DNA from: a virus
Taxonomy: Duplodnaviria > Heunggongvirae > Uroviricota > Caudoviricetes
Strand: one strand, 5' to 3'
Length of the DNA: 64,000 bases
Virus record (IMG/VR): IMGVR_UViG_2799112923_000001
Made by a program: the position numbers and the translations under genes. Positions 12,266-63,442 of this stretch are shown here, piece by piece (the stretch's first letter is position 1; the number at the start of each line of letters is the position of its first letter). The notes beneath the pieces were generated by a model. That model was given only the letters and a program-made list of their open reading frames with translations. It had not been told where the DNA came from and did no database searches.

Positions 12266-12688
12266 ATGATACTAGAATCAACTGTGCCAAAAGATTATAA
12301 TGCTATGCTCCGTCGGTTTAAAGCAAAATATCCATATCTTACTGCTTGGCTAGATGATGGGGCTAAAACTGCGTTTTTAATGAATGAAAAACTTGAAAAC
12401 GAAGATGATTTTATAAACAGTTTATCTATTGAAGAAAAAGACAATCCATTTGCCTGTTATAATTTTGATATTATTTACCAAAACAAAAATATAGCCAATT
12501 TAAAATCATATCGTTATGGTGGAAAACTTCTAGTAAAACATCTTAAAGATATAGATGCTTGTAAAATGACAGTTCCACAAATGGAACAGAAAATACAAGA
12601 AGTAATGGATATTATTGAAGCGAAAATTTTAGATAATAAACGATTACAAACGAAATACGAATTGGAAAAAATCAAATCCGACTTTTAA
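12266..12688 (+). CDS. DF-tail family protein
   Basis: Ends KRLQTKYELEKIKSDF*. Confidence 0.8.
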   Translation: MILESTVPKDYNAMLRRFKAKYPYLTAWLDDGAKTAFLMNEKLENEDDFINSLSIEEKDNPFACYNFDIIYQNKNIANLKSYRYGGKLLVKHLKDIDACKMTVPQMEQKIQEVMDIIEAKILDNKRLQTKYELEKIKSDF

Positions 12689-12689
12689 A

Positions 12690-12717
12690 AAATGGTGGTT
12701 CAAACGAACCACCATTT
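12690..12717. terminator. bidirectional intrinsic terminator
   Basis: AAATGGTGGTTC-AAAC-GAACCACCATTT between convergent genes. Confidence 0.85.
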
Positions 12718-12721
12718 ATTT

Positions 12722-13270
12722 TTAGGTATAATGATACGGGTCTAATTCTATTCCTATTGTTTCGCCTTCCAAAGCGGCTTTAAAATCTTCATCTTCTACA
12801 TTAGGAATAGTACCAACAAATTCTTCTTTATCATGGTCTAATCTATACAATTCAGCACTGTATTCATCATCTTCATAGTGAATAACATAAATGTAAGATT
12901 CATCATCAACATAATAGTTTATATTGTATTCGTCCCTATAAGGTCCATAAGCACCATCCGGGTCAACATTCTTTAATGGTTGCCATCTATTACATTTGAA
13001 CATAAATCTATCTTCAGTGCTTTCGTCAATTCCGTATGGGTCATTTACATATCTTTCTTCATTATGTAAGTCATTAAGTTCATTTTTGTAATTTTCCAAA
13101 TCGTCAATACTCCAGTCCGCCAAAGTATAATAATCCAAATCGGAATCACACATTGGGTCATCCAAAATTTCTTCAATTAACTCATGCTTATCTGGTGAGA
13201 TTTCTTCTTTGTTGTATTCCAACAAAAAGCCTTTGGAATGTAAAATCTGTTGTGCTTCGTTCAATTTCAT
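12722..13270 (-). CDS. leader-family protein, acidic
   Basis: MKLNEAQQILHSKGFLLE; near-consensus late promoter CATAAATA on - strand at 13306-13313. Confidence 0.75.
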   Translation of the reverse strand: MKLNEAQQILHSKGFLLEYNKEEISPDKHELIEEILDDPMCDSDLDYYTLADWSIDDLENYKNELNDLHNEERYVNDPYGIDESTEDRFMFKCNRWQPLKNVDPDGAYGPYRDEYNINYYVDDESYIYVIHYEDDEYSAELYRLDHDKEEFVGTIPNVEDEDFKAALEGETIGIELDPYHYT

Positions 13271-13311
13271 ATCTAACCTTGTAACTTTTTTATTACATTA
13301 TACTATATTTA

Positions 13312-13377
13312 TGTAAATTTAATTTTACATAATTTTACATATTTTCCATTGACAACTGTAGAATAATTATCTATATT
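13312..13377 (+). promoter_or_regulatory. TGTAAA-N6-TTTACA box plus sigma70-type promoter
   Basis: Box 13312-13329, gap 19, TTGACA 13349, N17, TATATT 13372. Confidence 0.8.
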
Positions 13378-13408
13378 AATAGTGTAAACAATAAAAGAGG
13401 TAAAAACA

Positions 13409-13663
13409 ATGGAATTAGCAAATCTTGAAGTAGCTGTAATCTATAAGAAGAACTCTGATGGAATTGGGTATTATGTTTTGACCCATCGCCCATCTAAAAA
13501 GGATGCTGAAGTTTGGTTGTGGCAGTATACCAACGAAAATGAAGCAGAAATGAAACGCAACTACAAGATTGAAATGATGCCATTGTTTGAAGTTCTCAAT
13601 TCGTTGTTGGCTGAAACTAATGAATTACGAGAAAAAGTTGAATATGCTTTCAGCCAAATCTAA
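13409..13663 (+). CDS. hypothetical protein
   Basis: GAGGT RBS after promoter. Confidence 0.75.
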   Translation: MELANLEVAVIYKKNSDGIGYYVLTHRPSKKDAEVWLWQYTNENEAEMKRNYKIEMMPLFEVLNSLLAETNELREKVEYAFSQI

Positions 13664-13682
13664 CCGATAGGAGGCAATAAAA

Positions 13683-13883
13683 ATGTGGGTTCTCATTATG
13701 ACGATTGTATTTGCAGGTAATTCCGGTTATGCAGGTTGGGGTAGTTCAACTGTGGCAACTCAGGAATTTAATAGTTCTGCTGCGTGCCGTTCTGCAGGTG
13801 CGGAATGGGCAAAGGCACAACCGAGTGTAAAGAATAACCAGAGTAATGGTGGTTCTATTAACTGGGTTTGTGTTCAAAAGTAA
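13683..13883 (+). CDS. small secreted/membrane protein with a Cys pair
   Basis: MWVLIMTIVFAG...QEFNSSAAC...CVQK; GGAGG RBS. Confidence 0.7.
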   Translation: MWVLIMTIVFAGNSGYAGWGSSTVATQEFNSSAACRSAGAEWAKAQPSVKNNQSNGGSINWVCVQK

Positions 13884-13895
13884 ACGAGGTAACAA

Positions 13896-17390: not shown

Positions 17391-17441
17391 ACAATAATTT
17401 ACAAAATCGTAGTTGACAAAACTGCGATTTTTTGCTATATT
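17386..17441 (+). promoter_or_regulatory. TGTAAA-N6-TTTACA box plus sigma70-type promoter
   Basis: Box 17386-17403, gap 9, TTGACA 17413, N17, TATATT 17436. Confidence 0.8.
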
Positions 17442-18251: not shown

Positions 18252-18593
18252 ATGGAACATACAAGAGCATTAGACATTCTCAAAAAAGATTATAATTTTA
18301 CAGTCATTACTACTGGACACCATTACTATGCTGTGTGTTGGGATAATGCGATTGTAATGTGGTATGAAGTTTCATCTGTGATTGAGAACATTCACAAAAT
18401 TAGACATATATCGGCTTTCAAGAAAAAGACCTATAAGAATTTGGTAAATTTTGATTATTCTCTTGAGGGTTCATTTACTATTGAAGAAGTGGATGAAGAT
18501 TTTTTACGAGCTGAATGTGATAAGATTTTGGTAAAAGTCAAGAAATGGCAAAGTCAAGATTTAATTAACAAAGCAAACCAGGATTTCCGATGA
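18252..18593 (+). CDS. DF-tail family protein
   Basis: Ends KKWQSQDLINKANQDFR*. Confidence 0.8.
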   Translation: MEHTRALDILKKDYNFTVITTGHHYYAVCWDNAIVMWYEVSSVIENIHKIRHISAFKKKTYKNLVNFDYSLEGSFTIEEVDEDFLRAECDKILVKVKKWQSQDLINKANQDFR

Positions 18594-18904
18594 AGTCTGT
18601 TCTATTAGAAAAACTATTTTTAGATAATAAGTTGTTAATGGAAAATTGTGATGGTGGTTCACAATCAGATTGCGACTGGTGTATCTATTCAAATGCCGAT
18701 GGCGATGTTTATGTTGTTGTTGAATACTATCATGACAAACATGTTGAATATGAAGCCACTGTACTTTTATATAATGATAATGTTGAATATGCCAAGCAGT
18801 TTGTATTTGGGCAAGAAAATGAAATGATTAAGTTCATTACAACAGATAAATTGCTACTAAAAGAACAATGGGCATTAGAACAAATTAAAAAGGATTTCCG
18901 ATGA
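18590..18904 (+). CDS. DF-tail family protein
   Basis: Ends ALEQIKKDFR*; tandem paralog of the next gene. Confidence 0.8.
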   Translation: MKSVLLEKLFLDNKLLMENCDGGSQSDCDWCIYSNADGDVYVVVEYYHDKHVEYEATVLLYNDNVEYAKQFVFGQENEMIKFITTDKLLLKEQWALEQIKKDFR

Positions 18905-19218
18905 ACAAAGATATAAGAGTATTAGAAAAATTGTTTGAACAGTATAAAATCACATTGGGTATTGATGATTGTTGTTCACAAAGAGATTACGAATGGTGCT
19001 ATTATGTTAATGATGATTATTCTATAACTGTAGATGCCACCTTTAATTATAATTCACCAAATGAATATGATGTCACAGTATCCCTTAATGATTATGATGA
19101 AATAAAAAAGACATTTAAAGAAGGTGAAGAAATGGAGCTGATTAAATTTATCACCACTGATAAAATGAAATTGGCAGAAAATCGGGCGTTAGAAAACATT
19201 AACAAGGATTTCCAATGA
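18901..19218 (+). CDS. DF-tail family protein
   Basis: Ends ALENINKDFQ*. Confidence 0.8.
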   Translation: MNKDIRVLEKLFEQYKITLGIDDCCSQRDYEWCYYVNDDYSITVDATFNYNSPNEYDVTVSLNDYDEIKKTFKEGEEMELIKFITTDKMKLAENRALENINKDFQ

Positions 19219-19526
19219 CTGGACAAGAATTAAAAAACGAATTGGTAAATCGTGGACTAACTTATTTGAAATATCAAGATAAAGCAATCCACGGTTTAGT
19301 CTTTATGACTTATTATATGATGTTTGGAACTATCCCAGTAGCCATTTATACATTGAGTGGTGAAGGAATGGATATGATAGCATTTGTTGAAACCAACAAC
19401 TCAGGCGGGTTTGAATGGAAAGATGACGAAATGGCAAATCCACAGTTCATTGACAAATATGTAAAGTTCTTAAAAGAATTTAAGGTCAATCAAACTATAA
19501 AAGAAATGGAGGTTGATTTTGACTAA
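19215..19526 (+). CDS. DF-tail family protein
   Basis: Ends KEFKVNQTIKEMEVDFD*. Confidence 0.8.
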   Translation: MTGQELKNELVNRGLTYLKYQDKAIHGLVFMTYYMMFGTIPVAIYTLSGEGMDMIAFVETNNSGGFEWKDDEMANPQFIDKYVKFLKEFKVNQTIKEMEVDFD

Positions 19527-19914
19527 CATAACAGAAAAAGAAATTTTAGCATTGAGTGACAAATACAATTTGCGTATAATAAAGGTCCAAACACAAGATG
19601 TATGGGATTGTTCAGTTTATTTAGACCATTCATTATTGAATAATGATAGTGATAAATTGTGCAAGTTTACTATAATGAATGGTGAGATAACATTTTTTGC
19701 TTGTTTTGAAAAACTAGAAACAGTTTACGATGCTTCGGATAACACAGTTCAATGTAGATTTATTACTGAATATCCATTAGGCACACATATTAACGATAAA
19801 GTTGAATTGGAAAATTTTATCAAGAAACAAATTAGAGCATTGGACTTGGCTGAAATTATGGAAAAGAAAATTAGAATGGATTTAAAGATTAACTCAATCA
19901 AACAGGATTTCTAA
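19519..19914 (+). CDS. DF-tail family protein
   Basis: TTG 19519 after GGAGG; ends KKIRMDLKINSIKQDF*. Confidence 0.8.
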   Translation: MTNITEKEILALSDKYNLRIIKVQTQDVWDCSVYLDHSLLNNDSDKLCKFTIMNGEITFFACFEKLETVYDASDNTVQCRFITEYPLGTHINDKVELENFIKKQIRALDLAEIMEKKIRMDLKINSIKQDF

Positions 19915-20310
19915 ATGGGTAAGAAGAAAATTACAGGATTTCCAAGAGAAAAGATTTTTGCGTTGGCTGAAAAGTATGGTTTGAACCATGAAGAAATAGA
20001 AGGCAGTTATTATTTCTATTTGCCAAAGTTAGGTATTATGAATGATGAAAATGATGACGAATATAGAGATGATTTGTTTGATTGGAGCGAGAATAGCAAA
20101 ACAATTCTAGTTTACACATCCTATTTGGTACGAGTCAGTGTTAATAATGGATGGGAAGCTCAATTTGAACACAGTGAAGAAGTAGGTACATTAGAACGAT
20201 TGGAAGCCATTGTTTCATATATGGTTGAAATGGCTAATAATTGGGTAAACATAAAGAAGAAAGTAGACGAACTAGGTTTAGCATTTAAAGCAAGCGAGGA
20301 TTTCCAATGA
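19915..20310 (+). CDS. DF-tail family protein
   Basis: Ends KKVDELGLAFKASEDFQ*. Confidence 0.8.
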   Translation: MGKKKITGFPREKIFALAEKYGLNHEEIEGSYYFYLPKLGIMNDENDDEYRDDLFDWSENSKTILVYTSYLVRVSVNNGWEAQFEHSEEVGTLERLEAIVSYMVEMANNWVNIKKKVDELGLAFKASEDFQ

Positions 20311-20678
20311 AAATTGAACAAGTGATAGAATTAGCAAAAGAACTAAATCTTGATTATGAATTTTACGATAAAGATTATTATTTCTATCTTCCAACCGACT
20401 GGGTTTTTAATGGATTATACTATGGTGGAGAAGATGATGATGACAGAGAGGCATTCTTTGTTTGGCGTCACAAAAGTAAGCACGTAGTTGCTACATTAAA
20501 CATTGTAATTGATGCTGATTTGAATTTCTATTATAACGATAGTGAAGAATATATCAAATTTGCTGAACTTGAAACTAAAATAAGAAAATTTTATAGTATA
20601 TTTTCACATTTACAAGAAATGAAAAAGAAAATGGAAGTTCAAAATAACATTGAAAAAATCAAATCAGATTTCAATTAA
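20307..20678 (+). CDS. DF-tail family protein
   Basis: Ends KKMEVQNNIEKIKSDFN*. Confidence 0.8.
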   Translation: MKIEQVIELAKELNLDYEFYDKDYYFYLPTDWVFNGLYYGGEDDDDREAFFVWRHKSKHVVATLNIVIDADLNFYYNDSEEYIKFAELETKIRKFYSIFSHLQEMKKKMEVQNNIEKIKSDFN

Positions 20679-21805: not shown

Positions 21806-21838
21806 TTGACAAAATGTGTTTTAATTTCTATATTTATA
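21806..21838. promoter_or_regulatory. overlapping divergent promoters: sigma70-type (+) and T4-type late (-)
   Basis: TTGACA 21806, N17, TATATT 21829 on +; TATAAATA on - at 21831-21838. Confidence 0.7.
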
Positions 21839-21854: not shown

Positions 21855-22235
21855 ATGGATTACGATAAGATAAAAGAACTGTGTTTGAAATATGAGTATT
21901 TTGAATTTAGCCAAAATACATTTGGGTTTAGTATTCGTATTAAGCCCATTAGTCAAGTAATGGCTCAATTTCCAAAACAATACGCAGTTGAACTAATTGG
22001 AGAAAAGTGCGAGATTTACGAATTTACACAATTACAGAAATTCGCTTATGGTAGTTCAATAGATTATGTTATCACTTCTTTGTGTACACGAACCATAGAA
22101 ACTACTGATGTTAATGTGTGTATTATTTCAAAAATTTTGGAACATGTGAAACAACAGATTGAAAATCATTTAACCCAATATAAAAAATATCGTCAAGAAA
22201 TGTTGATGGAAAACGCAAACGAGGATTTTACATGA
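21855..22235 (+). CDS. DF-tail family protein
   Basis: Ends KKYRQEMLMENANEDFT*. Confidence 0.8.
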   Translation: MDYDKIKELCLKYEYFEFSQNTFGFSIRIKPISQVMAQFPKQYAVELIGEKCEIYEFTQLQKFAYGSSIDYVITSLCTRTIETTDVNVCIISKILEHVKQQIENHLTQYKKYRQEMLMENANEDFT

Positions 22236-24267: not shown

Positions 24268-24528
24268 ATGGCAGAATTATCAATTAAAAAATTAAATGAA
24301 TCATTTGTAGAAATAGACGCAAGCGAAGATATTAACTTTAACATTTACTCTCGTTACTCCGAATATGTATCTGGTTATCAATTCCAACCACGATTTAAAC
24401 TTCGTGTATGGGATGGTAAACACCATTCTTATAATATGCGTTCAAGTATCCTTCCAATAGGATTAGTAAAAGATTTGTTGTTATGGGCTAGAAACCAAGG
24501 GACAACATTTGAACTTGAACGGATTTAG
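24268..24528 (+). CDS. uvsW: UvsW helicase, N-terminal part
   Basis: GYQFQPRFKLRVWDGK...LPIGLV matches the T4 UvsW N-terminal GYRFNPRF...WDGR...LPFGL. Confidence 0.8.
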   Translation: MAELSIKKLNESFVEIDASEDINFNIYSRYSEYVSGYQFQPRFKLRVWDGKHHSYNMRSSILPIGLVKDLLLWARNQGTTFELERI

Positions 24529-50027: not shown

Positions 50028-50732
50028 ATGAAACTAAATGATTTGATAGACCCTTCCAATACAAAACAACGAATAGCAAGATATAGAGAAAAAATGAATG
50101 ACGAGATTTATTCATTTTTAGATTCGTTTAAGTGTAATGGTGAAGAACTTGTAGTGAACCAGTTGTATGATGGTGGTTCTGATAAGAAAAAAATTTATAT
50201 TGATAAAATGTGTTATAGAATAAATTTTGCTGATAACCCAGGATTTCAAAAGATTGCTGAAAAATTGCGAGGCGAAATTCGTGTATCTGTTGGTTATGAT
50301 ATAGAAGTTAGGGTTAAAGTTCCTTCAATGAATATGTTAAGCAATTACAACAATTATATTAATGATGTTGTAACGTCTAAACTGAATAATACAGAAATTC
50401 ATACTTGGGGTACTACTGATTTTTGGATAGAACCACAGGTCATTACAAAACGAGTAATGACAGTTCCCACAGCAACAAAGTATATTCAAAAATTCTTTGA
50501 TTTCTCAGTTGATACAATTCAAAAGGGATTGACATGGAGCCAGTCAAAAGAAATTCAAGATGTGATTGAATTTACATATCAAAAGAAATTAGTAATAAAA
50601 GATTACGATAACCAGATAGGAAAATTGTGTACTGAACGAAACAAAATAGAGCGAGAACTGGACACATATAACGGAAAGTTGATTGAAAATTTCAAAAAAG
50701 AACGAGAAATGATGAAAGATTTCCAAATGTAA
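50028..50732 (+). CDS. DF-tail family protein, long class
   Basis: Ends KKEREMMKDFQM*. Confidence 0.8.
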   Translation: MKLNDLIDPSNTKQRIARYREKMNDEIYSFLDSFKCNGEELVVNQLYDGGSDKKKIYIDKMCYRINFADNPGFQKIAEKLRGEIRVSVGYDIEVRVKVPSMNMLSNYNNYINDVVTSKLNNTEIHTWGTTDFWIEPQVITKRVMTVPTATKYIQKFFDFSVDTIQKGLTWSQSKEIQDVIEFTYQKKLVIKDYDNQIGKLCTERNKIERELDTYNGKLIENFKKEREMMKDFQM

Positions 50733-50793
50733 AGAAATTTTTACACAATTTTACATTATTTCTATTGACAATGGACTAACAATTTACTATATT
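50728..50793 (+). promoter_or_regulatory. TGTAAA-N6-TTTACA box plus sigma70-type promoter
   Basis: Box 50728-50745, gap 19, TTGACA 50765, N17, TATATT 50788. Confidence 0.8.
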
Positions 50794-52233: not shown

Positions 52234-52565
52234 TGGATGTAACAGAATATAAAAAATTGAGTGAGATTAGATTCCATATACAACATAATGGAGTCTACTT
52301 ACTCAAATTTTATAATCTGTATAATACCCATAATGATAAACTTTTAAAGGCTTTTATTGAAGAATTTGATTACGAAGGTTTCTGTTCAGTTGAAGGACAA
52401 AAGTTAGATTTGGATTATGTTTTAGAAATAGTCAAGTCTAAAACAGAAAATGTTGTAACAAACAAAGTAATTGAATTGATTAAGAAAGATGTGAATACAG
52501 ACCTTTTAGTAAAAGAAATAAAAGCATTTGTAAATGAACTAGCCATAAAGAAAGACTTTGATTGA
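52233..52565 (+). CDS. DF-tail family protein
   Basis: Ends KEIKAFVNELAIKKDFD*. Confidence 0.8.
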   Translation: MDVTEYKKLSEIRFHIQHNGVYLLKFYNLYNTHNDKLLKAFIEEFDYEGFCSVEGQKLDLDYVLEIVKSKTENVVTNKVIELIKKDVNTDLLVKEIKAFVNELAIKKDFD

Positions 52566-52824: not shown

Positions 52825-52884
52825 AATTCACCTTTGGTTTATTCATTGGTTTTGTGGCTAATAAATAGATTAAAGGAAAATTTT

Positions 52885-53334
52885 ATGAAAGAATTAAGTT
52901 GTGGTTTTATTATTGTGAATAAAAAGAATCCAAAACAGATTTTGGCTTGCCAGCCAAATGGAAGAAAGGCCAACTGTTTTGGTAATTATGATATTCCAAA
53001 AGGACATATTGAAAAGGGCGAAACCACCTTGAATGCCGCAGTTCGTGAATTACAAGAAGAAACCGGCTATAAAATCAAGAATGAACAAATTTATGATTGT
53101 GGTCTTTTTCAGTATATAAAGAATAAAGATTTGTATGTTTATTTGATGTTCTCAGATCTTGACATTGGGTCATTACATTGTGATAGTACATTTGAATTAC
53201 ACGGTAGAATGGTCCCGGAAGTAGTCAATTACAAGTGGACTGACGATGTTCGTTTATTCTATAAATCTTTACAACCAATTATTGAAGAATGTTTAGACCA
53301 CTTTGAAGAAGGATATTATGAAGAAGTTAGTTAA
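52885..53334 (+). CDS. Nudix hydrolase (T4 NudE-like)
   Basis: Start ATG 52885; SCG, DIPKGHIEKGETTLNAAVRELQEETG. Confidence 0.88.
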   Translation: MKELSCGFIIVNKKNPKQILACQPNGRKANCFGNYDIPKGHIEKGETTLNAAVRELQEETGYKIKNEQIYDCGLFQYIKNKDLYVYLMFSDLDIGSLHCDSTFELHGRMVPEVVNYKWTDDVRLFYKSLQPIIEECLDHFEEGYYEEVS

Positions 53335-53452
53335 AGTTTTATTTGGTGTTTTGGGTGTAACTGCTACAGTTTACTTTTTCAAGCAGGAAAAGAGAACTAT
53401 CAAGAATTTACGCCGAAACATTGATGAACTAATCAAAAAGAAAATGGTATGA
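53318..53452 (+). CDS. small membrane-anchored protein (not in ORF track)
   Basis: MKKLVKVLFGVLGVTATVLLF...; AAGGA RBS. Confidence 0.5.
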   Translation: MKKLVKVLFGVLGVTATVYFFKQEKRTIKNLRRNIDELIKKKMV

Positions 53453-54063
53453 TTACTATAACAAATGATGTTCCATATTGCAACGAAGAAATAGATTTAT
53501 CTGTTATCGCAGATATTTTCCATAAACTATTTCCTAGTTATAATCTAACAAACAAATTATCTTTGACTCATTATAAAGACAAAGATTATTTCTCATTAAC
53601 CGGTTGGTGTGGTGATTTGAAACCTTCAATTCGTAAGATAATTGAACAAACACCACTAATTGAAGACTGGGAAAATGCTGAATGTTTGCGTTTTAGATTT
53701 TGTTATGAAACAAATAATAATAAATGGTGTGCCGATACATGGAACACAGTTTGTAAGTATTTTATCTTTAACATGGATGGCAAATATAATTTAGTTCAGC
53801 AGAACGATTATCACCGAATGTTGCCAGTTTATGAGAATCACTTTTCAGGATTTTCTACAGCAAGAAAATATCTTACAGATAGTGAAGAAAAAATGAAAAA
53901 AGGGTTTAACTGTGTTAAACATTTGTGTAAAATGCTTAAAGATGGTGGAATTATGGCTAATCTTGAAAAATTAACAGAAATGCGAGATTCCATTAAAGAA
54001 CTTGAAGAAAAAACACTACAAATGATTGACACTTACGATAAAATTAACTCAGATTTCAATTAA
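53449..54063 (+). CDS. DF-tail family protein, long class
   Basis: Ends TYDKINSDFN*. Confidence 0.8.
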   Translation: MITITNDVPYCNEEIDLSVIADIFHKLFPSYNLTNKLSLTHYKDKDYFSLTGWCGDLKPSIRKIIEQTPLIEDWENAECLRFRFCYETNNNKWCADTWNTVCKYFIFNMDGKYNLVQQNDYHRMLPVYENHFSGFSTARKYLTDSEEKMKKGFNCVKHLCKMLKDGGIMANLEKLTEMRDSIKELEEKTLQMIDTYDKINSDFN

Positions 54064-54129
54064 TGTAAACAATTATTTACACAATTTATACATTGGGCTA
54101 TTGACAAATAGTCCAATTTTTTCTATATT
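54064..54129 (+). promoter_or_regulatory. TGTAAA-N6-TTTACA box plus sigma70-type promoter in a hairpin
   Basis: Box 54064-54081, gap 19, TTGACA 54101, N17, TATATT 54124. Confidence 0.8.
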
Positions 54130-54163
54130 TAACTTAGATAACAACAAACCAAGAGGATTAACT

Positions 54164-55249
54164 ATGATTTATTACTATGGACTTTCTGCCGACCCAATTA
54201 CTATTGCCCACATTGACATTCTTAAATCCATTTACAAGCGCCTGGGTGAGAACGATAAACTCATGATTGGTGTTGTAAACAATGACGAAAAGAATTACAA
54301 AGCTCTCGGCTCCGACCGAATGGCTATGGTGTTTGAAATGCTCCATGCCAAGTTTGATATGGAAAAGGGCAACATTGAAGTTAAGAACCAAAACGATAGA
54401 ACATACAAGTTCTTGTGTGATTATATCGCAGCTAATGATTTGACCATGAAGGACATTACTATTGTTGTTGGTCAGGACGAATGGAACTCTCTTTGTTCCG
54501 GTAAGTGGGTTAATTGGGACCTGCTTTTGAAGCATTTTGAATTTCTTGCTTTTTGGCGAGAAGGAATGGATGACACGATTGTTATGCCTAAGTTTGGTGT
54601 GAATGTTGAATTTACATCTTTCAACATTACCCATTCTGTTAGTTCGTCTAAGGTTCGTGATATTCTCTCCCGAAACCCCGATTGCCACTATGAAGATGTG
54701 AAGGATTATATCACTCACCAGGCGTTCCGTTATATCAAGGAACACAAACTCTACAACCAAAATTCGTTTGACTATGATAAGGAAGAAGCAAAATTTCTCC
54801 AGGATTACGCAGTAGCCAAGCAGAAGAATGGTTGGGGTGAACCATCGGTCACCACAGATACGATTGCTTACAATGGCGAACAGATTTTGCTAATTCGTAG
54901 AAAGAAACCTCCATTCCAAAACTTTTGGGCCCTACCTGGTGGTTTCTTTGAAAAGACCGACGAAGATTTGAATTATGGTGCTGCCCGAGAACTTCGTGAA
55001 GAAACATCTCTTGATATGGACCCGGAACAGTTCGTACAAATTAAGACCTATGGACACAATTTTGACCCGCGTATGAAGATTGTTGATACTGCGTTTAGTG
55101 TTCGTATTCCAAAGAAGATGATGGACAAGGCAAAAGCTGATGACGATGCTGCTGAACATCGTTGGTTCAACATTAACGATTTGCCGAAGCTTGCTTTCCA
55201 CCACGAAATGATTATCAAGGATTGGCTTCGCAAGAAGGAGAACTCCTAA
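54164..55249 (+). CDS. nadD: bifunctional NaMN/NMN adenylyltransferase (NadD-like) and Nudix ADP-ribose pyrophosphatase
   Basis: Start ATG 54164; GLSADPITIAH, VGQD...W, VSSSKVR...YIKEHKLY; Nudix WALPGGF...AARELREETS, DPR, LAFHH. Confidence 0.85.
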   Translation: MIYYYGLSADPITIAHIDILKSIYKRLGENDKLMIGVVNNDEKNYKALGSDRMAMVFEMLHAKFDMEKGNIEVKNQNDRTYKFLCDYIAANDLTMKDITIVVGQDEWNSLCSGKWVNWDLLLKHFEFLAFWREGMDDTIVMPKFGVNVEFTSFNITHSVSSSKVRDILSRNPDCHYEDVKDYITHQAFRYIKEHKLYNQNSFDYDKEEAKFLQDYAVAKQKNGWGEPSVTTDTIAYNGEQILLIRRKKPPFQNFWALPGGFFEKTDEDLNYGAARELREETSLDMDPEQFVQIKTYGHNFDPRMKIVDTAFSVRIPKKMMDKAKADDDAAEHRWFNINDLPKLAFHHEMIIKDWLRKKENS

Positions 55250-55470: not shown

Positions 55471-55890
55471 ATGTTTCGTTATGACAAAGTAGAAAAAGTA
55501 TGTAATAAATACGGCTATTTGATTGAATTGTGTACATACAATTACTCAAAGAGGTTCGTAATTCTTACATACGATACACGATGCAAACAGGGCAAAGTTC
55601 CAGTTGGCTATATTGAATTTGAAGATATTATTACAAGAGATGGTGTTCAGTATGTAAAGAAAATTCATTTGTATAGTGAATTAACAATGAATGTTGAAAG
55701 CAACAGTATCAAACCTGAAGATTGGCATGCGAGTGAACACGAATTTTATTTGTTCTTGGTGAAATGGCGACTGAAGAAATTCCGTAAACAAATTGACGAT
55801 TTTGATTCCCATATCACTTTTTTAGAAACACATAACAAGAAACAAAAAGCAAACAAACTAGAAATGGATGCTGACAAAGATTTCAAATAA
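55471..55890 (+). CDS. DF-tail family protein
   Basis: Ends KKQKANKLEMDADKDFK*. Confidence 0.8.
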   Translation: MFRYDKVEKVCNKYGYLIELCTYNYSKRFVILTYDTRCKQGKVPVGYIEFEDIITRDGVQYVKKIHLYSELTMNVESNSIKPEDWHASEHEFYLFLVKWRLKKFRKQIDDFDSHITFLETHNKKQKANKLEMDADKDFK

Positions 55891-55902
55891 GGAGAAATAA
55901 CT

Positions 55903-56274
55903 ATGAAGTTTAAGACTGTAATCTATGTAACGAAAGATAACTCCCCAGGCATTGATTCATGGGCCGAAAAGAAGTACGATGAACAGTTTAATCGTATTGA
56001 TGGAACGGTAGAAAATGAAGAAGAATGGAATAAATTTTGGACTGATGTAAAGACCAATTTGGTAGATAACATTGATACTTCGCCATATTTTATTGCTATG
56101 GTTTTCAATGAACTCGGCGATAACATTATCAATTTCTCTGCTGAAGATTTATCAGATGACCCAGATGCTATGGGCTATGGTTCTTCTTATGGTAAGGATT
56201 GGAGTTGGGTATCTACCAAGGAGCCATTACAGACAAAAGAAGAATATGAAGAATGGCAGGAGAATTTCTTTTAA
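55903..56274 (+). CDS. acidic hypothetical protein
   Basis: AGGAG RBS. Confidence 0.75.
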   Translation: MKFKTVIYVTKDNSPGIDSWAEKKYDEQFNRIDGTVENEEEWNKFWTDVKTNLVDNIDTSPYFIAMVFNELGDNIINFSAEDLSDDPDAMGYGSSYGKDWSWVSTKEPLQTKEEYEEWQENFF

Positions 56275-56456
56275 TGGTTTCCAAGTACATTCACTATTTC
56301 AAATTTACAGATGGTCATAACGATTACGAAGCCAAAATTGAAAACGATGACGATGCTGAAACATTCAAGAATTGTGTAAATCGTTGCCGGGAAAAGGTTT
56401 TCGGACCTGCTGGTATTTCTGTAACGGAAATTAGAACGGAGTTGCGTGATGATTAA
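56274..56456 (+). CDS. hypothetical protein
   Basis: TAATG coupling at 56274. Confidence 0.65.
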   Translation: MVSKYIHYFKFTDGHNDYEAKIENDDDAETFKNCVNRCREKVFGPAGISVTEIRTELRDD

Positions 56457-56826
56457 ACTTAGAAGAATTAGCGAAACTGAGTTTATTAATGCTCTTGAAA
56501 AGACTGCTCGGGAACTGGGTTATACAGTAGAACGAAAAGACTATACTGATTTCAAGGAAACATACACATTCCAGGTGTTTCATACTATGAAACTTCCAAC
56601 ACATAAAAACGAAATTTTGGGTATCATTAAAACTTTTACGGATGGTGATACTGAATGTTGGAGATTCCAATTCAATAAAGATGACCATCCTGATTGGGCT
56701 ATGTGTGGTATAAGATTCAATTATAAGTATTTGGAAATTTTCAAGAAGTATCTAATTGAGTTTTCAAAGAACTATAAGCAGTATTTGGAATGGCAAAATC
56801 TCAAGGACTTAAAGGAAGATTTTTAA
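56446..56826 (+). CDS. DF-tail family protein
   Basis: Ends KQYLEWQNLKDLKEDF*. Confidence 0.8.
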   Translation: MMIKLRRISETEFINALEKTARELGYTVERKDYTDFKETYTFQVFHTMKLPTHKNEILGIIKTFTDGDTECWRFQFNKDDHPDWAMCGIRFNYKYLEIFKKYLIEFSKNYKQYLEWQNLKDLKEDF

Positions 56827-57203
56827 TGAAGAAAGAAATTTCTTTTAAAGATTATCGTCAGTTTATGCTAGACCAAGGACTATCTTATGAAAGTTCTATT
56901 GATTATGATGAAGATGCACAGCTTAATGGTTGGGTATTTAAACATGGTCAGTATACATTCTATTTGGTTGATTTGACTGAACCAATGCGACCAAATGACA
57001 TAGAACCTTCAATCTATGAATTTGCTGAAGGGTTTAACCATGAAACTATGGAAATTAACCAGCTCATTACAGATGACGATGAATATGCTGCTAAACACCC
57101 AAAGACTTTTAAAGAATTTAAAAAGATGTTAACTGAGAGCATTAAAGATTTGAAATCCTATGTAAATCAGATTGACATTGATAAAATCAAGGAAGATTTC
57201 TAA
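56826..57203 (+). CDS. DF-tail family protein
   Basis: Start ATG 56826; ends KSYVNQIDIDKIKEDF*. Confidence 0.8.
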   Translation: MKKEISFKDYRQFMLDQGLSYESSIDYDEDAQLNGWVFKHGQYTFYLVDLTEPMRPNDIEPSIYEFAEGFNHETMEINQLITDDDEYAAKHPKTFKEFKKMLTESIKDLKSYVNQIDIDKIKEDF

Positions 57204-57574
57204 TGGATATTATTAAAGAAATAGTTATGATATTATTGTTGGTTGGTGTTTTAGGCACACTATTTAATTTGTTTGCCGGCGCCGAGTTGGAAGGATATTT
57301 CAGCGAAAAAGTTGTTTTTGTAATAATTGGTATTTTGTATGTGTTGGAAATCGTCGGTTGCCATTATATGTTTAAATGGGACCGAGAGTCAGCAGAAGAA
57401 AGACGAAGAACTGCTTATGTTATTCACATTGAACCAGATGGCGAAACATGTGAAGGACGATATTATTCGGGTAAGAATAGCCCTATAACAGTTAAATGTT
57501 TAGATGGCAGAACATATATAGCACAATCTATACAAGTTATTAAAGAAATTAAACTCAAACATCCAGTAAAATAA
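57203..57574 (+). CDS. two-TM membrane protein
   Basis: Two hydrophobic helices. Confidence 0.7.
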   Translation: MDIIKEIVMILLLVGVLGTLFNLFAGAELEGYFSEKVVFVIIGILYVLEIVGCHYMFKWDRESAEERRRTAYVIHIEPDGETCEGRYYSGKNSPITVKCLDGRTYIAQSIQVIKEIKLKHPVK

Positions 57575-57586
57575 GGAGATAAAATT

Positions 57587-58309
57587 ATGATGATGATGGA
57601 AGATAAGTATTTTCGTCACTATCCCGATTCGGACAGTTATAACCCAAAGGATGTTAAGAATCCTGAAGCCATTGGCGAATGGTTGTTAGCATATAATAAG
57701 ATTTATGAATTGTGTGAAAAGTATGGTTGTAAAGCCTGGGGTAATACTGACCTCGGTGGAAAACTCAACCCAATTCTCACACCTGATGAAATGCGAACAA
57801 AGTTATACAAACAGTTTGATAATGGTGAAGATTTTTGTGAATTTATCGGACCCACCATTGATAATTTTAACTATTTTGACCCAACACTAACAAAGTATGC
57901 TTCTAATGGTCCTTGTTTGAAGATTTGGGTTGGTACACGAAACAAGAACCAGATCAGATTAAAGAAACCAATTATCGTTACTAAATTTGAAATGCCAGGT
58001 TATACAATCCCCGATTTTTCTGTAAACATTGATAAAGAATGCGGTGATGAAGCCATTGATGGCATTATGGTTCCAGTCGCAACATGCCCAACTAACTATC
58101 ACTATTGGGAAAACAAGGAATGGAATTTTGACGAATTCAGTTCCGAAATTGATAAGTTTGATGCGTTTATGGAATTGAACAAGAAAGAATATGAACCAGT
58201 TCTGTTGGAATTGAGAAAGAAGATTTTAGCAGGTGGTGATATTGAAGTTCTTTGTAAAGAAGTAAATGACAAATACAATCTAGGATGGCAAATTGGTAGC
58301 ATGTTCTAA
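57587..58309 (+). CDS. hypothetical protein
   Basis: AGGAG RBS. Confidence 0.75.
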   Translation: MMMMEDKYFRHYPDSDSYNPKDVKNPEAIGEWLLAYNKIYELCEKYGCKAWGNTDLGGKLNPILTPDEMRTKLYKQFDNGEDFCEFIGPTIDNFNYFDPTLTKYASNGPCLKIWVGTRNKNQIRLKKPIIVTKFEMPGYTIPDFSVNIDKECGDEAIDGIMVPVATCPTNYHYWENKEWNFDEFSSEIDKFDAFMELNKKEYEPVLLELRKKILAGGDIEVLCKEVNDKYNLGWQIGSMF

Positions 58310-58634
58310 TATCTTTAACCAGGTCGCACAAGATTTTGGTTTAACTATAACTGTTCACGAGGACAGTAGTGTAGGGAAGTTTCAAAATTTTCCTGGGTTC
58401 GTAATTGCTAGTAATTTCAAAGACGGAAGTATCTTATCTGCGATGGCATTCAATGAGAAAGAAAAATGTTTTTGGGGAGCCGAAGCATATTACGATGAAA
58501 CTAAACTTCGTGAACATGTAGCCAAACTAATTCAACTGGCAAAGAACTCAATTATTGAGCATAAACTGGATAATATAAAAGAGGATTTCAAATGTTTGGC
58601 TTCTTTAAAAAACGAAACCCAAAACCAAAACTAA
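58293..58634 (+). CDS. DF-tail family protein with C-terminal extension
   Basis: KNSIIEHKLDNIKEDF followed by 14 extra residues. Confidence 0.7.
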   Translation: MVACSNIFNQVAQDFGLTITVHEDSSVGKFQNFPGFVIASNFKDGSILSAMAFNEKEKCFWGAEAYYDETKLREHVAKLIQLAKNSIIEHKLDNIKEDFKCLASLKNETQNQN

Positions 58635-59005
58635 CACCTGAAATAGTAAAGAATTTTAAAGAACAACTTTCTAAGTTGGATGGTGTATATTTAGGAACAG
58701 ACTATGACCCTGACGATTATAATATATGCGAAGGGTTATTGTTCTTTTCTTTATACGAAAAATTTTATATAGATGTAGAACCTGTATCTAATTATTCCGA
58801 CATTTCAGGTATTAAAGATTATAATGGGTGGGTTTTTAAATTGTGTAAAGGTGCTTATGTTTACAGAATTTATACGAATATATCTGATGTGATTAGAGAA
58901 TATGATACATTCCATGACATAACTGCGATTGACCCATACGATTTAGAGATAAAACAACACAAATTGGAAGATAAACTGAACCAAATCCAACAAGATTTTG
59001 AGTAA
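58592..59005 (+). CDS. DF-tail family protein
   Basis: Ends KQHKLEDKLNQIQQDFE*. Confidence 0.8.
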   Translation: MFGFFKKRNPKPKLTPEIVKNFKEQLSKLDGVYLGTDYDPDDYNICEGLLFFSLYEKFYIDVEPVSNYSDISGIKDYNGWVFKLCKGAYVYRIYTNISDVIREYDTFHDITAIDPYDLEIKQHKLEDKLNQIQQDFE

Positions 59006-59071
59006 TGTAAACATAATTTTACATAAAAACCCATAAAATCCATTGACAAACACATTAAAAATTACTATATT
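59006..59071 (+). promoter_or_regulatory. TGTAAA-N6-TTTACA box plus sigma70-type promoter
   Basis: Box 59006-59023, gap 19, TTGACA 59043, N17, TATATT 59066. Confidence 0.8.
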
Positions 59072-59971: not shown

Positions 59972-60736
59972 ATGAACAAAATCACTACTGATGCAATTGA
60001 ATGGATTAAGAACTACTTCAAGACTACCAATGGTCGCAAGGCCGTAATTGGTATCTCGGGTGGTAAGGACTCTACCGTGGTAGCAGCTCTTTGTGCCAAG
60101 GCACTCGGAGCGGAAAATGTTGTTGGTGTTCTCATGCCAAATGGTGTTCAGTCCGATATTGCTGATTCCGAATTGGTTGTAAAGACCCTCGGAATTGAGA
60201 GTTTGGTTGTAAACATTCAGTATGCTTACATGAACCTGGTAAACCAGATCAACGAAAAGCATATTTCTAGCCAGGCCCAAATCAATATGCCTCCCCGTCT
60301 CCGTATGACAGTTCTCTATGGTGTGGCACAGAACATTGGCGGTCGTGTTGCTAACACTTGCAATCTCTCCGAAGATACTGTGGGTTACGCAACTCTCTAT
60401 GGTGATAGCGCTGGTGACTTCTCTCCACTCGCTCGTTTGACTACTGAAGAAATCGTTGCCATTGGTGATGACCTTGGTTTGCCATACGAACTTGTTCATA
60501 AGACTCCGAGTGATGGTCTTTGTGGTAAGACCGATGAAGATAATCTCGGCTGCACCTACCACGAAATCAATGAACTTATCCGTAAGGGAGTCAAGGGTCC
60601 GAACTACGATTTGATTATCAAGAAGTACAAGGCAAACAAGTTCAAGACGGACATCATTCGTATTCCAGCATTTGAACCAACGAATCCTCTTCTTCCCAAC
60701 TACATTCACGAAATGGATAACGCAGGAGCCCTCTAA
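59972..60736 (+). CDS. nadE: NH3-dependent NAD+ synthetase
   Basis: GISGGKDS, N..PRLRM, NLSE...GYATLYGD, PSDGL...TDEDNLG. Confidence 0.93.
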   Translation: MNKITTDAIEWIKNYFKTTNGRKAVIGISGGKDSTVVAALCAKALGAENVVGVLMPNGVQSDIADSELVVKTLGIESLVVNIQYAYMNLVNQINEKHISSQAQINMPPRLRMTVLYGVAQNIGGRVANTCNLSEDTVGYATLYGDSAGDFSPLARLTTEEIVAIGDDLGLPYELVHKTPSDGLCGKTDEDNLGCTYHEINELIRKGVKGPNYDLIIKKYKANKFKTDIIRIPAFEPTNPLLPNYIHEMDNAGAL

Positions 60737-61373: not shown

Positions 61374-61377
61374 AACT

Positions 61378-61641
61378 ATGGAAGAAGTAATTGGATCTGG
61401 ATATGAACAGGAATCAATTTCCGAACAGGTAAAGAATAAGGTCAAAGAAATCAAGAACTCAAAGGTCTATAAGGACATTTTCTCTCACCCAATTACGGGT
61501 TGTTATGAACACCAGGACGAAAACGGAAATTGGGTAGAAGGTCCGGCACTCGGTCACAGCTATCATGGTGGCTATGACGAATATCACGAACAACATAAAT
61601 CCAAGCTTGAAAAGTGGCTTGAAGAAAAGGGGGTTCTCTAA
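61378..61641 (+). CDS. hypothetical protein
   Basis: GAGGAG RBS. Confidence 0.7.
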   Translation: MEEVIGSGYEQESISEQVKNKVKEIKNSKVYKDIFSHPITGCYEHQDENGNWVEGPALGHSYHGGYDEYHEQHKSKLEKWLEEKGVL

Positions 61642-61814
61642 TGAATTGGTTAGTTAAGAGAATTCTGTTTATTCTTGTAATGTGTATTGGTGGTATTTCA
61701 CTAGCCAACTGGCTTTATGGTCCTGTATCAAATGGATTCGCATTTGTTTATGGAATGATAGTCGGTGTTGCCGGTGCTATTCTATTCCCAAGAGAAGAAG
61801 AGGCGGATGAATAA
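61641..61814 (+). CDS. small two-TM protein (not in ORF track)
   Basis: MNWLVKRILFILVMCIGG...GAILFPREEEADE. Confidence 0.6.
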   Translation: MNWLVKRILFILVMCIGGISLANWLYGPVSNGFAFVYGMIVGVAGAILFPREEEADE

Positions 61815-62300
61815 ATGGCGAAGGATAAGTACGATAAGAAAGAAATTATCAAGCAGTTAAGAAATCTCGTTGCCAGCGACTCAGTCAAGTATGATGCTAC
61901 TAGATTGGCTAAGGTAGAAAACGAAATTAACCAAATGAACGATGACCAGATTAATCGTGCGTTGTTGTTAGCTGAGTTTCAATCTGCCCTAGTCCGAGAA
62001 AATTATTTTGACTGGACACCGGAAGAACTTAATGTAATCCAAGCTGCCATTGAATCATGTGGCATTAAGATTAACGAAGTCAAGAAAATGGACAAAGAAG
62101 ATGGCCGAGACGATTATGCGTTTGTTCTTGATGACGATTTGAAAGTTGTATGGGTGAACAAAATGAACCCATTCATCAAATCTGGTATATATAATCTATT
62201 GGGTGTTGGGTTGAATTTCCCTTGTAATAACTACCAAACAGTAGAAGAACTTGGGTCAGCCGTAGTTGAAACAATTAAAAAAGTAAGAGAGTACATGTAA
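61815..62300 (+). CDS. hypothetical protein
   Basis: ORF track, operon context. Confidence 0.75.
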   Translation: MAKDKYDKKEIIKQLRNLVASDSVKYDATRLAKVENEINQMNDDQINRALLLAEFQSALVRENYFDWTPEELNVIQAAIESCGIKINEVKKMDKEDGRDDYAFVLDDDLKVVWVNKMNPFIKSGIYNLLGVGLNFPCNNYQTVEELGSAVVETIKKVREYM

Positions 62301-62536
62301 TGAAAAAGTTATTTTTTGTATTAGCAGTTTTAGTTTCATTTTCATTTGGTGGAGAAAAAACAATCTTTGAAGTTTGTAATGACAAATTCTGTTATGAACA
62401 AATTTTAGAGAATGTGAAAAACTATGAGTGGAAGACTGATTATACAGGAAAGAAATTTCTTCGTGTGTATTTCTATGACAAACGATTGCTTGACATTAAG
62501 GGCGAAAACTTAACAATCAAGAAGAAAAAGAAATAA
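62300..62536 (+). CDS. small exported protein
   Basis: Signal peptide MKKLFFVLAVLVSFSFG. Confidence 0.7.
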   Translation: MKKLFFVLAVLVSFSFGGEKTIFEVCNDKFCYEQILENVKNYEWKTDYTGKKFLRVYFYDKRLLDIKGENLTIKKKKK

Positions 62537-62551
62537 AAAAGGAACTGAACT

Positions 62552-62932
62552 ATGAATAGATTACTTGAATTATTTGAATCAAGACCAAATATGTTTAGAC
62601 GATTGGCAAAGGGAACTGACCTATCAATCACCAATTATACTTCAGCTTCTTATGCTAATGCGTTTCACAAAGATAGAGCAACTGCAATTATCCAAATGAA
62701 ATCTAAACCATTTTTCTTTGGTATGTTTACAGAATACACAGTTCAAATGCCTAAACATTTGAAATTGTGCCAGTTTAAAGATAGCAAAGAATGGTACATT
62801 GGATATGATAATGATATGAAAAACATTATTACATATTCCGAGGGAAAAGAACATTTGCGTAAATTGATTGCTGAATACAAAAATCTTAAACACGAACTGA
62901 GTGCCAAAGATTTTGAATCCGATTTTATTTAA
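62552..62932 (+). CDS. DF-tail family protein
   Basis: Ends KNLKHELSAKDFESDFI*. Confidence 0.8.
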   Translation: MNRLLELFESRPNMFRRLAKGTDLSITNYTSASYANAFHKDRATAIIQMKSKPFFFGMFTEYTVQMPKHLKLCQFKDSKEWYIGYDNDMKNIITYSEGKEHLRKLIAEYKNLKHELSAKDFESDFI

Positions 62933-62934
62933 GA

Positions 62935-62991
62935 TGTAAATTTTTATTTACATCTTTTTTAATTGCCAAGTTTCTGTTAGTTTATTATATT
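62935..62991 (+). promoter_or_regulatory. TGTAAA-N6-TTTACA box plus sigma70-type promoter
   Basis: Box 62935-62952, gap 10, TTGCCA 62963, N17, TATATT 62986. Confidence 0.7.
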
Positions 62992-63016
62992 TGGTTGGTA
63001 AACAATGGAGGCAACT

Positions 63017-63442
63017 ATGGATGGAATTTTTGAATATCTTGACGAACTAATTAAACAAACACAGTCGCAGGAATTTGTTAGAAAACACCATTTTTATCTT
63101 GATGGTGAAAATGACAGTTATGATGGATATAATTATGGTGTAACGGCAGTTCACCAAGTTGGTAATGGTAAAAGAATTAAATATCCAATTTTCATTTGCT
63201 ACACAGACTGCTATGATATTGACGATAAATTTGAATTAAATCAGTATGAATATATTAACGATTTAAATTTATTCGTAAATAAGGGAACATTAGAATTTGA
63301 AAATGGAATTGGTGAACAGGAAATGACATTCCAAAAAGCAAAGAAATTTATTGATGCTCAGGTCCAACAGTTCTATTTGATTTCCAAATATCAAAAGATG
63401 AATGGTGAAATTGACAAGATTAACCAAGAATTTAGGGATTAA
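63017..63442 (+). CDS. DF-tail family protein (variant EF)
   Basis: Start ATG 63017 after GGAGG; ends KYQKMNGEIDKINQEFRD*. Confidence 0.7.
   Translation: MDGIFEYLDELIKQTQSQEFVRKHHFYLDGENDSYDGYNYGVTAVHQVGNGKRIKYPIFICYTDCYDIDDKFELNQYEYINDLNLFVNKGTLEFENGIGEQEMTFQKAKKFIDAQVQQFYLISKYQKMNGEIDKINQEFRD

Follow-up and report, generated by a model that had tools for sequence, protein, structure and literature searches.

The 64,000-nucleotide stretch of DNA analysed here (the window) belongs to the IMG/VR record IMGVR_UViG_2799112923_000001 and comes from an uncultured T4-like phage of the ruminant gut with a genome of ~400 kb. It has a G+C content of 33%, and the + strand carries nearly all of its genes. 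Between positions 12,266 and 63,442, a first-pass annotation made from the sequence alone had listed 42 open reading frames (ORFs) for small proteins, 38 of them ending in Asp-Phe (D-F) and four with variants of this ending, and had proposed that unrelated proteins share one C-terminal motif. We refer to these genes as the DF family and name each by its start position. All 42 ORFs are present on the + strand, each at the start it had been given. Of the 38, 37 have 0–5 residues between D-F and the stop; the exception, 58293, has 14. Members are typically ~90–160 residues long and cluster at 100–140.

The shared ending is strongly non-random. Among 127 non-overlapping + strand ORFs of the window, 40 carry D-F within their last eight residues, where 3.5 are predicted from the frequency of the dipeptide in the protein bodies. 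Shuffling the last 30 residues of each protein 1,000 times gave 2.8 such ORFs on average and never more than 9. As a control, ORFs on the − strand were scored, and one in 110 ended in D-F. A related 210-kb IMG/VR contig (G002) is equally rich, with 136 DF-ending ORFs out of 405, or about a third, and other relatives likewise; a distant T4-like contig, 37% identical in the UvsW helicase, has none.

Aligned without gaps on the Asp (position 0), the 38 ORFs have Lys at −14 in 30 cases, one of I, A, L, M or V at −3 in 37, and one of L, I, V, M or F at −6 in 63% (L or I in 23), in agreement with the pattern first described. Pooling the window phage with G002 gave 153 members and the consensus K(−14)-x6-[KR](−7)-L(−6)-x-x-[ILM](−3)-x-x-D-F. 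Position −14 is Lys in 140 members and Arg in 3, while position −7 is Lys in 77 and Arg in 40. In 136 of the 153 (89%), Phe occupies the final or penultimate position; what follows D-F is nothing, or one or two polar residues, mostly E, N, K or D. The last 16 residues have a mean net charge of +0.8 and are thus neutral to basic. A helix-like composition, with few Gly or Pro and many Glu and Lys, reaches back to about −30, and conservation farther upstream is at background.

A matrix built from the 16-residue tail, with a hit threshold of 12 bits, found 161 members in the two phages against 0.6 in shuffled sequences, and 155 of the 161 lie at most six residues from the C-terminus. The four variants (36147, ending DSL; 38919, EF; 47119, DM; 63005, EF) keep K−14 and a hydrophobic residue at −3 and are plausible members, as had been proposed, although 47119 and 63005 score weakly. 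Also weak on the matrix are 34887, 44811, 62552 and 48397. The recognisable enzymes of the window (UvsW, the two ligase halves, NAMPT, NUDIX, NadE, SLT and HD proteins) lack the motif, as the first-pass annotation had stated.

Family genes and their transcription units

The family genes all lie in units headed by sigma70-type promoters, an assignment of the first-pass annotation that was borne out. The sequence TTGACA-N16-CTATATT occurs 14 times, always on the + strand, where 0.11 copies are expected, and the layout is that of early units read by the host polymerase. These signals argue for a host that uses standard sigma70 and Shine-Dalgarno sequences. In the gene lists that follow, the last figure in each bracket is the score on the 16-residue matrix; all genes and promoters are on the + strand.

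The first member, 12266–12688 (140 aa, tail KRLQTKYELEKIKSDF; 22.0), is the last gene ahead of a terminator. A promoter at 17413–17441 heads the run 18252–20678, which comprises 18252–18593 (113 aa, tail ...NKANQDF+R; 22.8), the head paralogs 18590–18904 (104 aa; 19.2) and 18901–19218 (105 aa; 18.8), 19215–19526 (103 aa; 20.9), 19513–19914 (133 aa; 24.0), and a second pair of head paralogs, 19915–20310 (131 aa; 13.3) and 20307–20678 (123 aa; 25.8), the latter ending the run. The promoter at 21806–21834 precedes 21855–22235 (126 aa; 23.6).

The run 34424–37933 follows the promoter at 33464–33492. It opens with 34424–34897 (157 aa; 20.5), modelled at low confidence as a helix, five strands and a long C-terminal helix, and the weak member 34887–35225 (112 aa, register off by one; 2.0). 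Then come 35222–35650 (142 aa; 14.9), 35647–36147 (166 aa; 25.6), the variant 36147–36506 (119 aa; 14.6), which keeps K−14, K−7, L−6, I−3 and D0 and ends in DSL, 36503–36868 (121 aa, five residues past D-F; 16.9), 36855–37202 (115 aa; 20.2), 37203–37574 (123 aa; 15.5) and, ending the run, 37571–37933 (120 aa; 27.7). The promoter at 37974–38002 heads the run 38623–40742, made up of 38623–38922 (99 aa; 20.2), the variant 38919–39155 (78 aa, EF for DF; 14.6), 39145–39408 (87 aa; 14.7), 39979–40419 (146 aa; 26.7) and the terminal 40419–40742 (107 aa; 26.1).

The same units also hold the two halves of a DNA ligase and genes for NAD+ synthesis. The promoter at 40781–40809 heads ligase half A together with 42708–43142 (144 aa; 16.9) and 43139–43459 (106 aa; 19.8). 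That at 44367–44395 heads the weak member 44811–45440 (209 aa; 1.9) and 45412–45789 (125 aa; 22.1), a head paralog of 58592. Behind the promoter at 45827–45855 lie ligase half B and six entries of the family: the doubtful variant 47119–47739 (206 aa, ending KDM; −5.7), 47739–48413 (224 aa; 14.1), 48397–49071 (224 aa; 11.7), 49071–49685 (204 aa; 19.1), 49685–50026 (113 aa; 17.2) and 50028–50732 (234 aa; 22.8), which ends the run. NAMPT, 52233–52565 (110 aa; 20.3) and the run-ending 53449–54063 (204 aa; 15.7) follow the promoter at 50765–50793.

The unit headed by the promoter at 54101–54129 extends over 55471–59005. It contains 55471–55890 (139 aa; 18.9), 56446–56826 (126 aa; 25.8), the confidently modelled 56790–57203 (19.9), whose true start is probably 56826 (125 aa, as in 31 orthologs), 58293–58634 (113 aa; 16.9) and, as the last gene of the run, 58592–59005 (137 aa; 29.2), the head paralog of 45412. 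The frame of 58293 continues 14 residues past D-F; in this gene and its G002 ortholog the next gene still starts 5 nt past the Phe codon, and the extension may be a rare tolerated one or mark a member in decay. Finally, the promoter at 59043–59071 heads NadE and 62552–62932 (126 aa, tail ...AKDFESDF+I; 10.9), beyond which lies the variant 63005–63442 (145 aa, EF for DF; 9.1).

Two further features accompany these promoters. The palindrome TGTAAA-N6-TTTACA is present in 14 copies, against 0.42 expected, starting at 12184, 13312, 16943, 17386, 33427, 37894, 37937, 40744, 44339, 50728, 54064, 58844, 59006 and 62935; 13 copies span 18 bp, and that at 58844 has a 10-nt spacer. Of 13 copies read, 11 sit ~10–25 nt upstream of a TTGACA-N16-CTATATT promoter, the exceptions being 12184 and 62935. 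A dimeric regulator of the early units may use the palindrome as its operator. At 40765–40810, 33450–33492, 54085–54129 and similar places, a G+C-containing inverted repeat brackets the −35 hexamer, with its T-run as the spacer, as in TTGGGT-TGACAAATG-ACCCAA-TTTTTT-CTATATT. The terminator of the previous unit and the promoter of the next may thus be combined in one compact element.

The motif is selected at the protein level

Many family genes overlap or abut the next start codon, which raises the question of whether the motif is a protein feature at all. It could be the imprint of a ribosome-binding site, or of another DNA or RNA signal for the coupled downstream gene, of the form AGGAT-TTY-NN-ATG. 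In coupled genes the codon ahead of Asp indeed tends to end in G (the preceding wobble base is G in 73 of 96 coupled members), and the codons at and ahead of Asp then spell AGGA 6–9 nt upstream of the next ATG. However, 57 of the 153 members have no start codon within 12 nt downstream and still keep D-F, with wobble usage at background. Where the residue ahead of Asp is Lys, Glu or Gln, its codon ends in G in 65 of 76 coupled but in 9 of 29 uncoupled genes; the background is 10–42%. Uncoupled genes retain D-F with background wobble while coupled ones gain the G, which indicates that a Shine-Dalgarno sequence has been overlaid on a protein motif and not the reverse. Moreover, K−14, K/R−7 and L−6 lie too far upstream to belong to a ribosome-binding site, and the − strand and shuffled controls show no enrichment.

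Codon comparison with close strains gave the same picture. Synonymous sites in the tail vary freely (proportion of synonymous differences, 0.17–0.22; GAT/GAC, 124/29; TTT/TTC, 86/67), and synonymous divergence there is as high as elsewhere. The ratio of nonsynonymous to synonymous divergence (dN/dS), taken over 18 family genes and 33 others with small counts but a clear direction, is 0.17 at the six motif positions, 0.22 at the other ten tail positions, 0.42 in the helix upstream of the tail and 0.44 across the heads; ordinary genes stand at 0.27. The motif is under purifying selection as protein. The uncoupled genes and the dN/dS pattern effectively refute a Shine-Dalgarno imprint, and we see next to no chance for any nucleotide-level origin. 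The constant amphipathic helix that the first-pass annotation described is strictly C-terminal and is maintained for its amino acid sequence.

The heads diverge fast within a single phage clade

The proteins that bear this tail diverge very fast. Between the window phage and G002, core genes are 55–89% identical, whereas syntenic family genes are 23–34% identical or undetectable. Within the window, heads that had been called unalignable by eye are also unalignable by BLAST, except for the three paralog pairs given above. With the last 30 residues removed, the 153 members fall into 132 BLAST clusters. Strains also differ by whole small genes inserted inside the arrays. At the junctions 34422/34423 and 43716/43731, related strains have 381 and 442 extra bases, which are whole-gene insertions or deletions; the 381-base segment was seen in a related contig (G001) and in the contig of one sequencing run, the 442-base segment only in a contig of the latter kind.

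The family is of unusual size for a phage and is undescribed. The 161 members, 119 of them in G002, have no Pfam match at E ≤ 0.001 apart from one borderline TetR hit in G002, in line with the earlier statement that no named family covers them, and up to 0.01 no Pfam family matches more than one of them. For the 42 window members, no Pfam match fell below E = 0.001, and none of the PHROGs matches was convincing (best E = 2.3e-4, for one member). Public sources call the family proteins 'hypothetical' or leave them nameless. A literature search found no name or paper for the family, and both PMC11662467 and PMC12880540 are silent on it.

The family was found only in one clade of ~400-kb T4-like phages from the cattle and sheep gut. 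The first-pass annotation had suggested a profile of the tail as a way to establish its range. Such a profile (44 positions), run against 1.84 billion representative proteins, returned two hits at E ≤ 0.001: a spurious repeat protein and a 48-aa piece of a family protein. At that search size the motif is not informative enough, so the result says little about range. Searched at E ≤ 10 against the longer proteins of a 5.8-billion set, the profile matched small orphan proteins only, and the best 47 matches among the 5.8 billion are all 91–162 aa long, none with a Pfam domain. A degenerate DNA pattern for K-L-x-K-I-x-E-D-F-stop placed the multi-tail loci of IMG/VR in the same clade. That scan also returned a 217-aa GIY-YIG-like protein ending KLEKIIEDF; it lacks K−14 and was taken as a coincidence. 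In 185,579 bacterial species genomes, the same narrow pattern gave 17 short or out-of-frame chance matches and no host protein with the tail.

The heads probably share one fold

The first-pass annotation regarded the tail-bearing proteins as unrelated, a view that our results disfavour. A model of the product of 56826–57200 (125 aa, from 28 sequences) reached a predicted local distance difference test (pLDDT) of 89 and a predicted template modelling score of 0.83. It consists of a helix (residues 7–16), five to six strands and a C-terminal helix (95–124), with pLDDT 86–97 up to residue 120 and 72 for the last five residues. The product of 34424, whose head is unrelated in sequence, gave a low-confidence model (pLDDT 56) with the identical order of elements. 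Composition and size fit this order family-wide: the N-terminus is rich in E, K and L, poor in Gly and Pro and helix-like, Y, I, V, T and F abound between −70 and −37, and −30 to +1 are poor in G and P. With HMMER filters off, head-to-head comparison gave 95 hits at E < 0.01, against 16 for reversed and 3 for shuffled sequences. No member carries a known domain. Were the tail a portable tag, some copies should be attached to recognisable domains; none was, which disfavours a tag on unrelated folds. We therefore propose, with moderate confidence, that the members form a single hyper-divergent family, folded as a helix-sheet-helix sandwich with the motif on the last helix; the heads are probably not unrelated folds.

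Comparison with known structures gave only distant likenesses. Foldseek of the confident model against the PDB and BFVD returned nothing at E ≤ 0.001. Its nearest structures in the Atlas belong to other viral orphan clusters, with template modelling (TM) scores of 0.61–0.73 over the whole model; TM is 0.47 to a CesT/YbjN cluster and, for the Atlas's own model, 0.48 to YjbR. With VIA-align, YjbR/DUF419, frataxin/CyaY and type III secretion chaperones scored Z 4.0–4.8 over 79–97 residues, values that the tool classes as a 'common arrangement'; its top row (Z 5.4) was an unrelated Mediator chain. Frataxin/CyaY, YjbR (DUF419) and the CesT/YbjN-like chaperones have in common with the predicted DF-family fold the order N-terminal helix, antiparallel sheet, long C-terminal helix. 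Unlike the DF family, they never end in K...KL..I..DF, and there is no sequence similarity.

Neighbouring genes and relatives of the phage

The window encodes a UvsW-type helicase (24509–25759). Its N-terminal domain (PF21241) is a separate 86-aa ORF at 24268–24528 that overlaps the start of the helicase ORF, as it is in G002. Downstream, 25781–33409 holds four large conserved proteins of 732, 1272, 272 and 264 aa. Neither Pfam nor PHROGs matches the first three, and the fourth is weakly like a head-closure protein (phrog_679); the segment is probably a virion module within the early region.

An NAD-dependent DNA ligase is encoded in two genes, 40839–41954 (half A, the N-terminal half with adenylation and OB domains) and 45868–46716 (half B, the C-terminal half), which match opposite ends of phrog_3869. 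The halves belong to separate transcription units 3.9 kb apart, with DF-family genes in between, and the split is kept in G002. Nicotinamide phosphoribosyltransferase (NAMPT, 50824–52233) and NAD synthetase (NadE, 59972–60736) form part of an NAD+ supply module (42177–42707, 50824–52233, 52834–53334, 54026–55249 and 59972–60736) that also comprises two NUDIX proteins and a CTP_transf_like protein of the NMN adenylyltransferase type. Such a module fits the 'NAD-jumbo phages' that PMC11662467 describes. The window further encodes an SLT lysozyme-like protein and an HD protein.

Five small neighbouring ORFs (3208–3612, 4825–5199, 5201–5476, 5473–5754 and 5764–6018) have only an N-terminal motif of ~20 residues in common, M-x-L-[DNT]-E-A-x-E-[IV]-L-x-E-[NH]-G-[YF]; beyond it their sequences differ, mirroring the C-terminal DF family.

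The phage belongs to the NAD+-synthesising gut jumbo phages, which PMC11662467 describes in general terms, and its genome is similar in size to those of the T4-like 'Jug' phages (PMC12880540). Megablast of the region from UvsW to the 1272-aa protein against 50,697 phage records gave no match, and the nearest cultured T4-like relatives are less than 41% identical in UvsW. IMG/VR contains close and moderately related contigs, among them G002 (UvsW 88% identical; CheckV completeness 56%), and close homologs also lie on ENA scaffolds of 407–409 kb. In cattle-gut metagenomes from three or more studies, 44–99% of the sampled words of a 10-kb test stretch were present, and one sheep-gut RNA library covers most of it too. 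Contigs from the RNA libraries of three studies span almost all of 34000–43999, which we do not count as proof of transcription, DNA carry-over being possible.

A conserved face opposite the packing stripe

We plotted residue frequencies of the 153 members on a helical wheel. The hydrophobic positions −29, −26, −22, −19, −15 and −12 centre at ~290°. L−6, I−3 and F+1, together with −10, lie at ~100° on the opposite side, with K−14, K/R−7 and D0 beside them at 0–40°. The upstream stripe is ~27 Å long, the right length for lying on a five-stranded sheet, and the helix outreaches the sheet. That the conserved face lies opposite the core-packing stripe favours a docking surface. Lys−14 is almost never Arg while −7 takes either residue, which suggests a requirement beyond charge. 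In ungapped profiles anchored at either terminus, all head columns stay at or below ~0.5 bit, and no equally conserved partner inside the protein is evident.

We propose that the DF genes form a single family of small cytoplasmic early proteins that is confined to this lineage, has expanded hugely and diverges very fast. A typical member would be a two-layer sandwich of a short N-terminal helix, a five- to six-stranded sheet with a variable surface and a C-terminal helix of ~30 residues. The first two thirds of that helix would pack on the sheet, and the last 16 residues, ending the protein, would present the face K−14, K/R−7, L−6, I/L/M−3, D0 and F+1 to solvent. Such a face may be a common docking handle that brings many different heads to one host or phage partner, or by which one machine recognises them all. 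We give this combination, a common handle on one shared fold, a little less than an even chance. The adaptor library suggested by the first-pass annotation could take this form; a protease or unfoldase, the host RNA polymerase and another host hub are candidate hubs among which the present data give no preference.

Several observations weigh against a docking handle. No partner was found: the conserved non-family proteins are an AAA_28 kinase-like protein, the UvsW N-domain, HD, SLT, NUDIX and head-closure-like proteins, or have no match. Exposure of the face is derived from the helical wheel and size arguments, not from coordinates. Because both the predicted fold and the weak frataxin-, YjbR- and type III chaperone-like matches include the last helix, its conservation may be partly structural. 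When two ortholog groups were compared by hhalign, the alignment covered just the final 11 residues, so sequence does not demonstrate common descent of the heads. In addition, 58293–58634 and its G002 ortholog, 108677–109006, tolerate 14 and 9 residues past D-F.

The most serious alternative is that the helix is a structural keystone. In a single diverged fold, it would simply be the best-conserved element, with L−6, I−3 and F+1 clasping the N-terminal helix or an edge of the sheet, Asp capping the helix and no partner in common. The helix is integral to both models and to the weak fold matches, no member bears a foreign domain, and the pattern of the N-terminal helix is family-wide as well. 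Within ortholog groups, conservation is 0.67–0.81 in the tail and 0.69 in the head, a modest gain. Such a role is harder to reconcile with a hydrophobic stripe in the last 12 residues that faces away from the upstream packing stripe, or with a Lys−14 that is nearly never Arg and has no comparably conserved head position to pair with. The extreme C-terminal place (155 of 161) and the pLDDT of 72 for the last five residues also fit a free tip better. On balance we find the keystone somewhat unlikely.

A second alternative is that the tip is a degradation signal or timer, read by a host or phage protease or unfoldase so that the early set is cleared or controlled together, or that, as the first-pass annotation proposed, it tethers targets to a protease. 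The ssrA tag is a known C-terminal recognition tag and the SspB XB motif a known adaptor tether; the strictly C-terminal motif with its hydrophobic last residue resembles such elements. Its confinement to early-type units, and a single signal common to about a third of the genes, would suit this role. The tail nevertheless has no sequence likeness to known degrons, it is a structured helix of 30 residues where a degron is typically unstructured, and neither the window nor the annotated G002 proteins, a minority of that contig's proteins, yielded a protease or unfoldase. We judge a degron or timer very unlikely.

Relation to sliding-clamp motifs

The first-pass annotation had also pointed to the sliding clamp, given the C-terminal clamp-binding motif of T4. 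On this reading, the tail is a PIP-like motif by which the family loads many proteins onto a gp45-type clamp. T4 gp43, gp55 and gp33 bind gp45 through C-terminal epitopes with L-D-F (gp43 and gp55 end SLDFLFG and SLDFLYEAND), so an extreme C-terminal D-F motif common to otherwise different proteins of a T4-like phage has a precedent. I−3 and F+1 fit positions 4 and 8 of the PIP box, Q-x-x-[ILM]-x-x-[FY]-[FY], but these are the only positions that fit: position 1 is Leu in the family (84 of 153) and position 7 the invariant Asp. The T4 epitopes are short, hydrophobic and acidic, interchangeable and carried on a flexible linker (PMC2988020). By contrast, the family tail is a continuous, neutral to basic helix with an invariant K−14 that ends at D-F, with no hydrophobic residues beyond it. 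T4 has three such clients, the present phage well over a hundred family proteins.

The clade also has motifs of the T4 type elsewhere. In G002, the gp43 homolog ends SSGLDDFFV, lacking K−14, K−7 and L−6; the DNA methyltransferase next to it (phrog_67) has the ending NSGLNDFFE, and a 130-aa neighbour of gp41 the ending SILDFLN. Altogether, the C-terminal motifs GLDDFFV, GLNDFFE, SILDFLN, SFEDFFV, DSDDFF... and MIKDFLGL are found on the DNA polymerase, the DNA methyltransferase and a few proteins without assigned function, encoded in G002 at 35731–38490, 35049–35747, 29344–29736, 9431–9784 and 27636–28589 and in the window at 7445–8074. These proteins are probable sliding-clamp clients of the clade. 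The hydrophobic, acidic motif GL[DN]DFF on the DNA polymerase and methyltransferase implies that a T4-type clamp motif exists separately from the K...KL..I..DF helix, which weakens the analogy. Searches with T4 gp45, gp44, gp62, gp55 and others by phmmer, and with PF02916, found no homolog in the window or in G002 (~56% complete). The clamp is a possible partner and not the leading candidate; a clamp toolbelt built on the family has, in our estimate, only a slim chance.

Other systems and implications

Multigene families that join a variable binding part to a constant C-terminal module for docking on one host hub are known from the poxvirus ankyrin/PRANC, F-box and SOCS-box proteins, which the DF family resembles in layout and proposed function only. 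Those families serve eukaryotic ubiquitin-ligase systems, whereas the DF family has no Pfam match and acts in a bacterial setting without such a ligase. The variable part of PRANC-type proteins consists of repeats; that of the DF family is probably one small fold. A terminal Phe after acidic residues is also the docking element of Escherichia coli SSB, whose C-terminal tip, ...DDDIPF, enters pockets in its partners. There, one protein offers a disordered, strongly acidic tip to many partners, while in the DF family many proteins bear one helical tip.

A bolder version of the docking handle is that the DF helix is a portable recognition-and-acceptor module. An enzyme or machine might dock on the L−6/I−3/D-F tip and act on Lys−14, for example by a covalent modification fed by phage NAD+, or the tip might load some 150–250 binder heads onto one hub. 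We consider this quite unlikely. If true in either its acceptor or its loader form, it would be a phage-encoded adaptor library comparable to the viral F-box and PRANC families, with no known bacteriophage counterpart.

An invariant C-terminal element, a fast-changing remainder and a share of about a third of the gene set together suggest an arms-race binder library with one point of control or delivery. Such a library could serve host takeover or counter host defence. Even with a purely structural helix, few paralog families reported from phages would probably be larger. The genomes of giant phages hold hundreds of orphan early genes without assigned roles. If one partner reads the tip, more than a hundred of these genes would have a common mechanism, and the partner would be a hub central to the infection of an abundant ruminant-gut bacterium.

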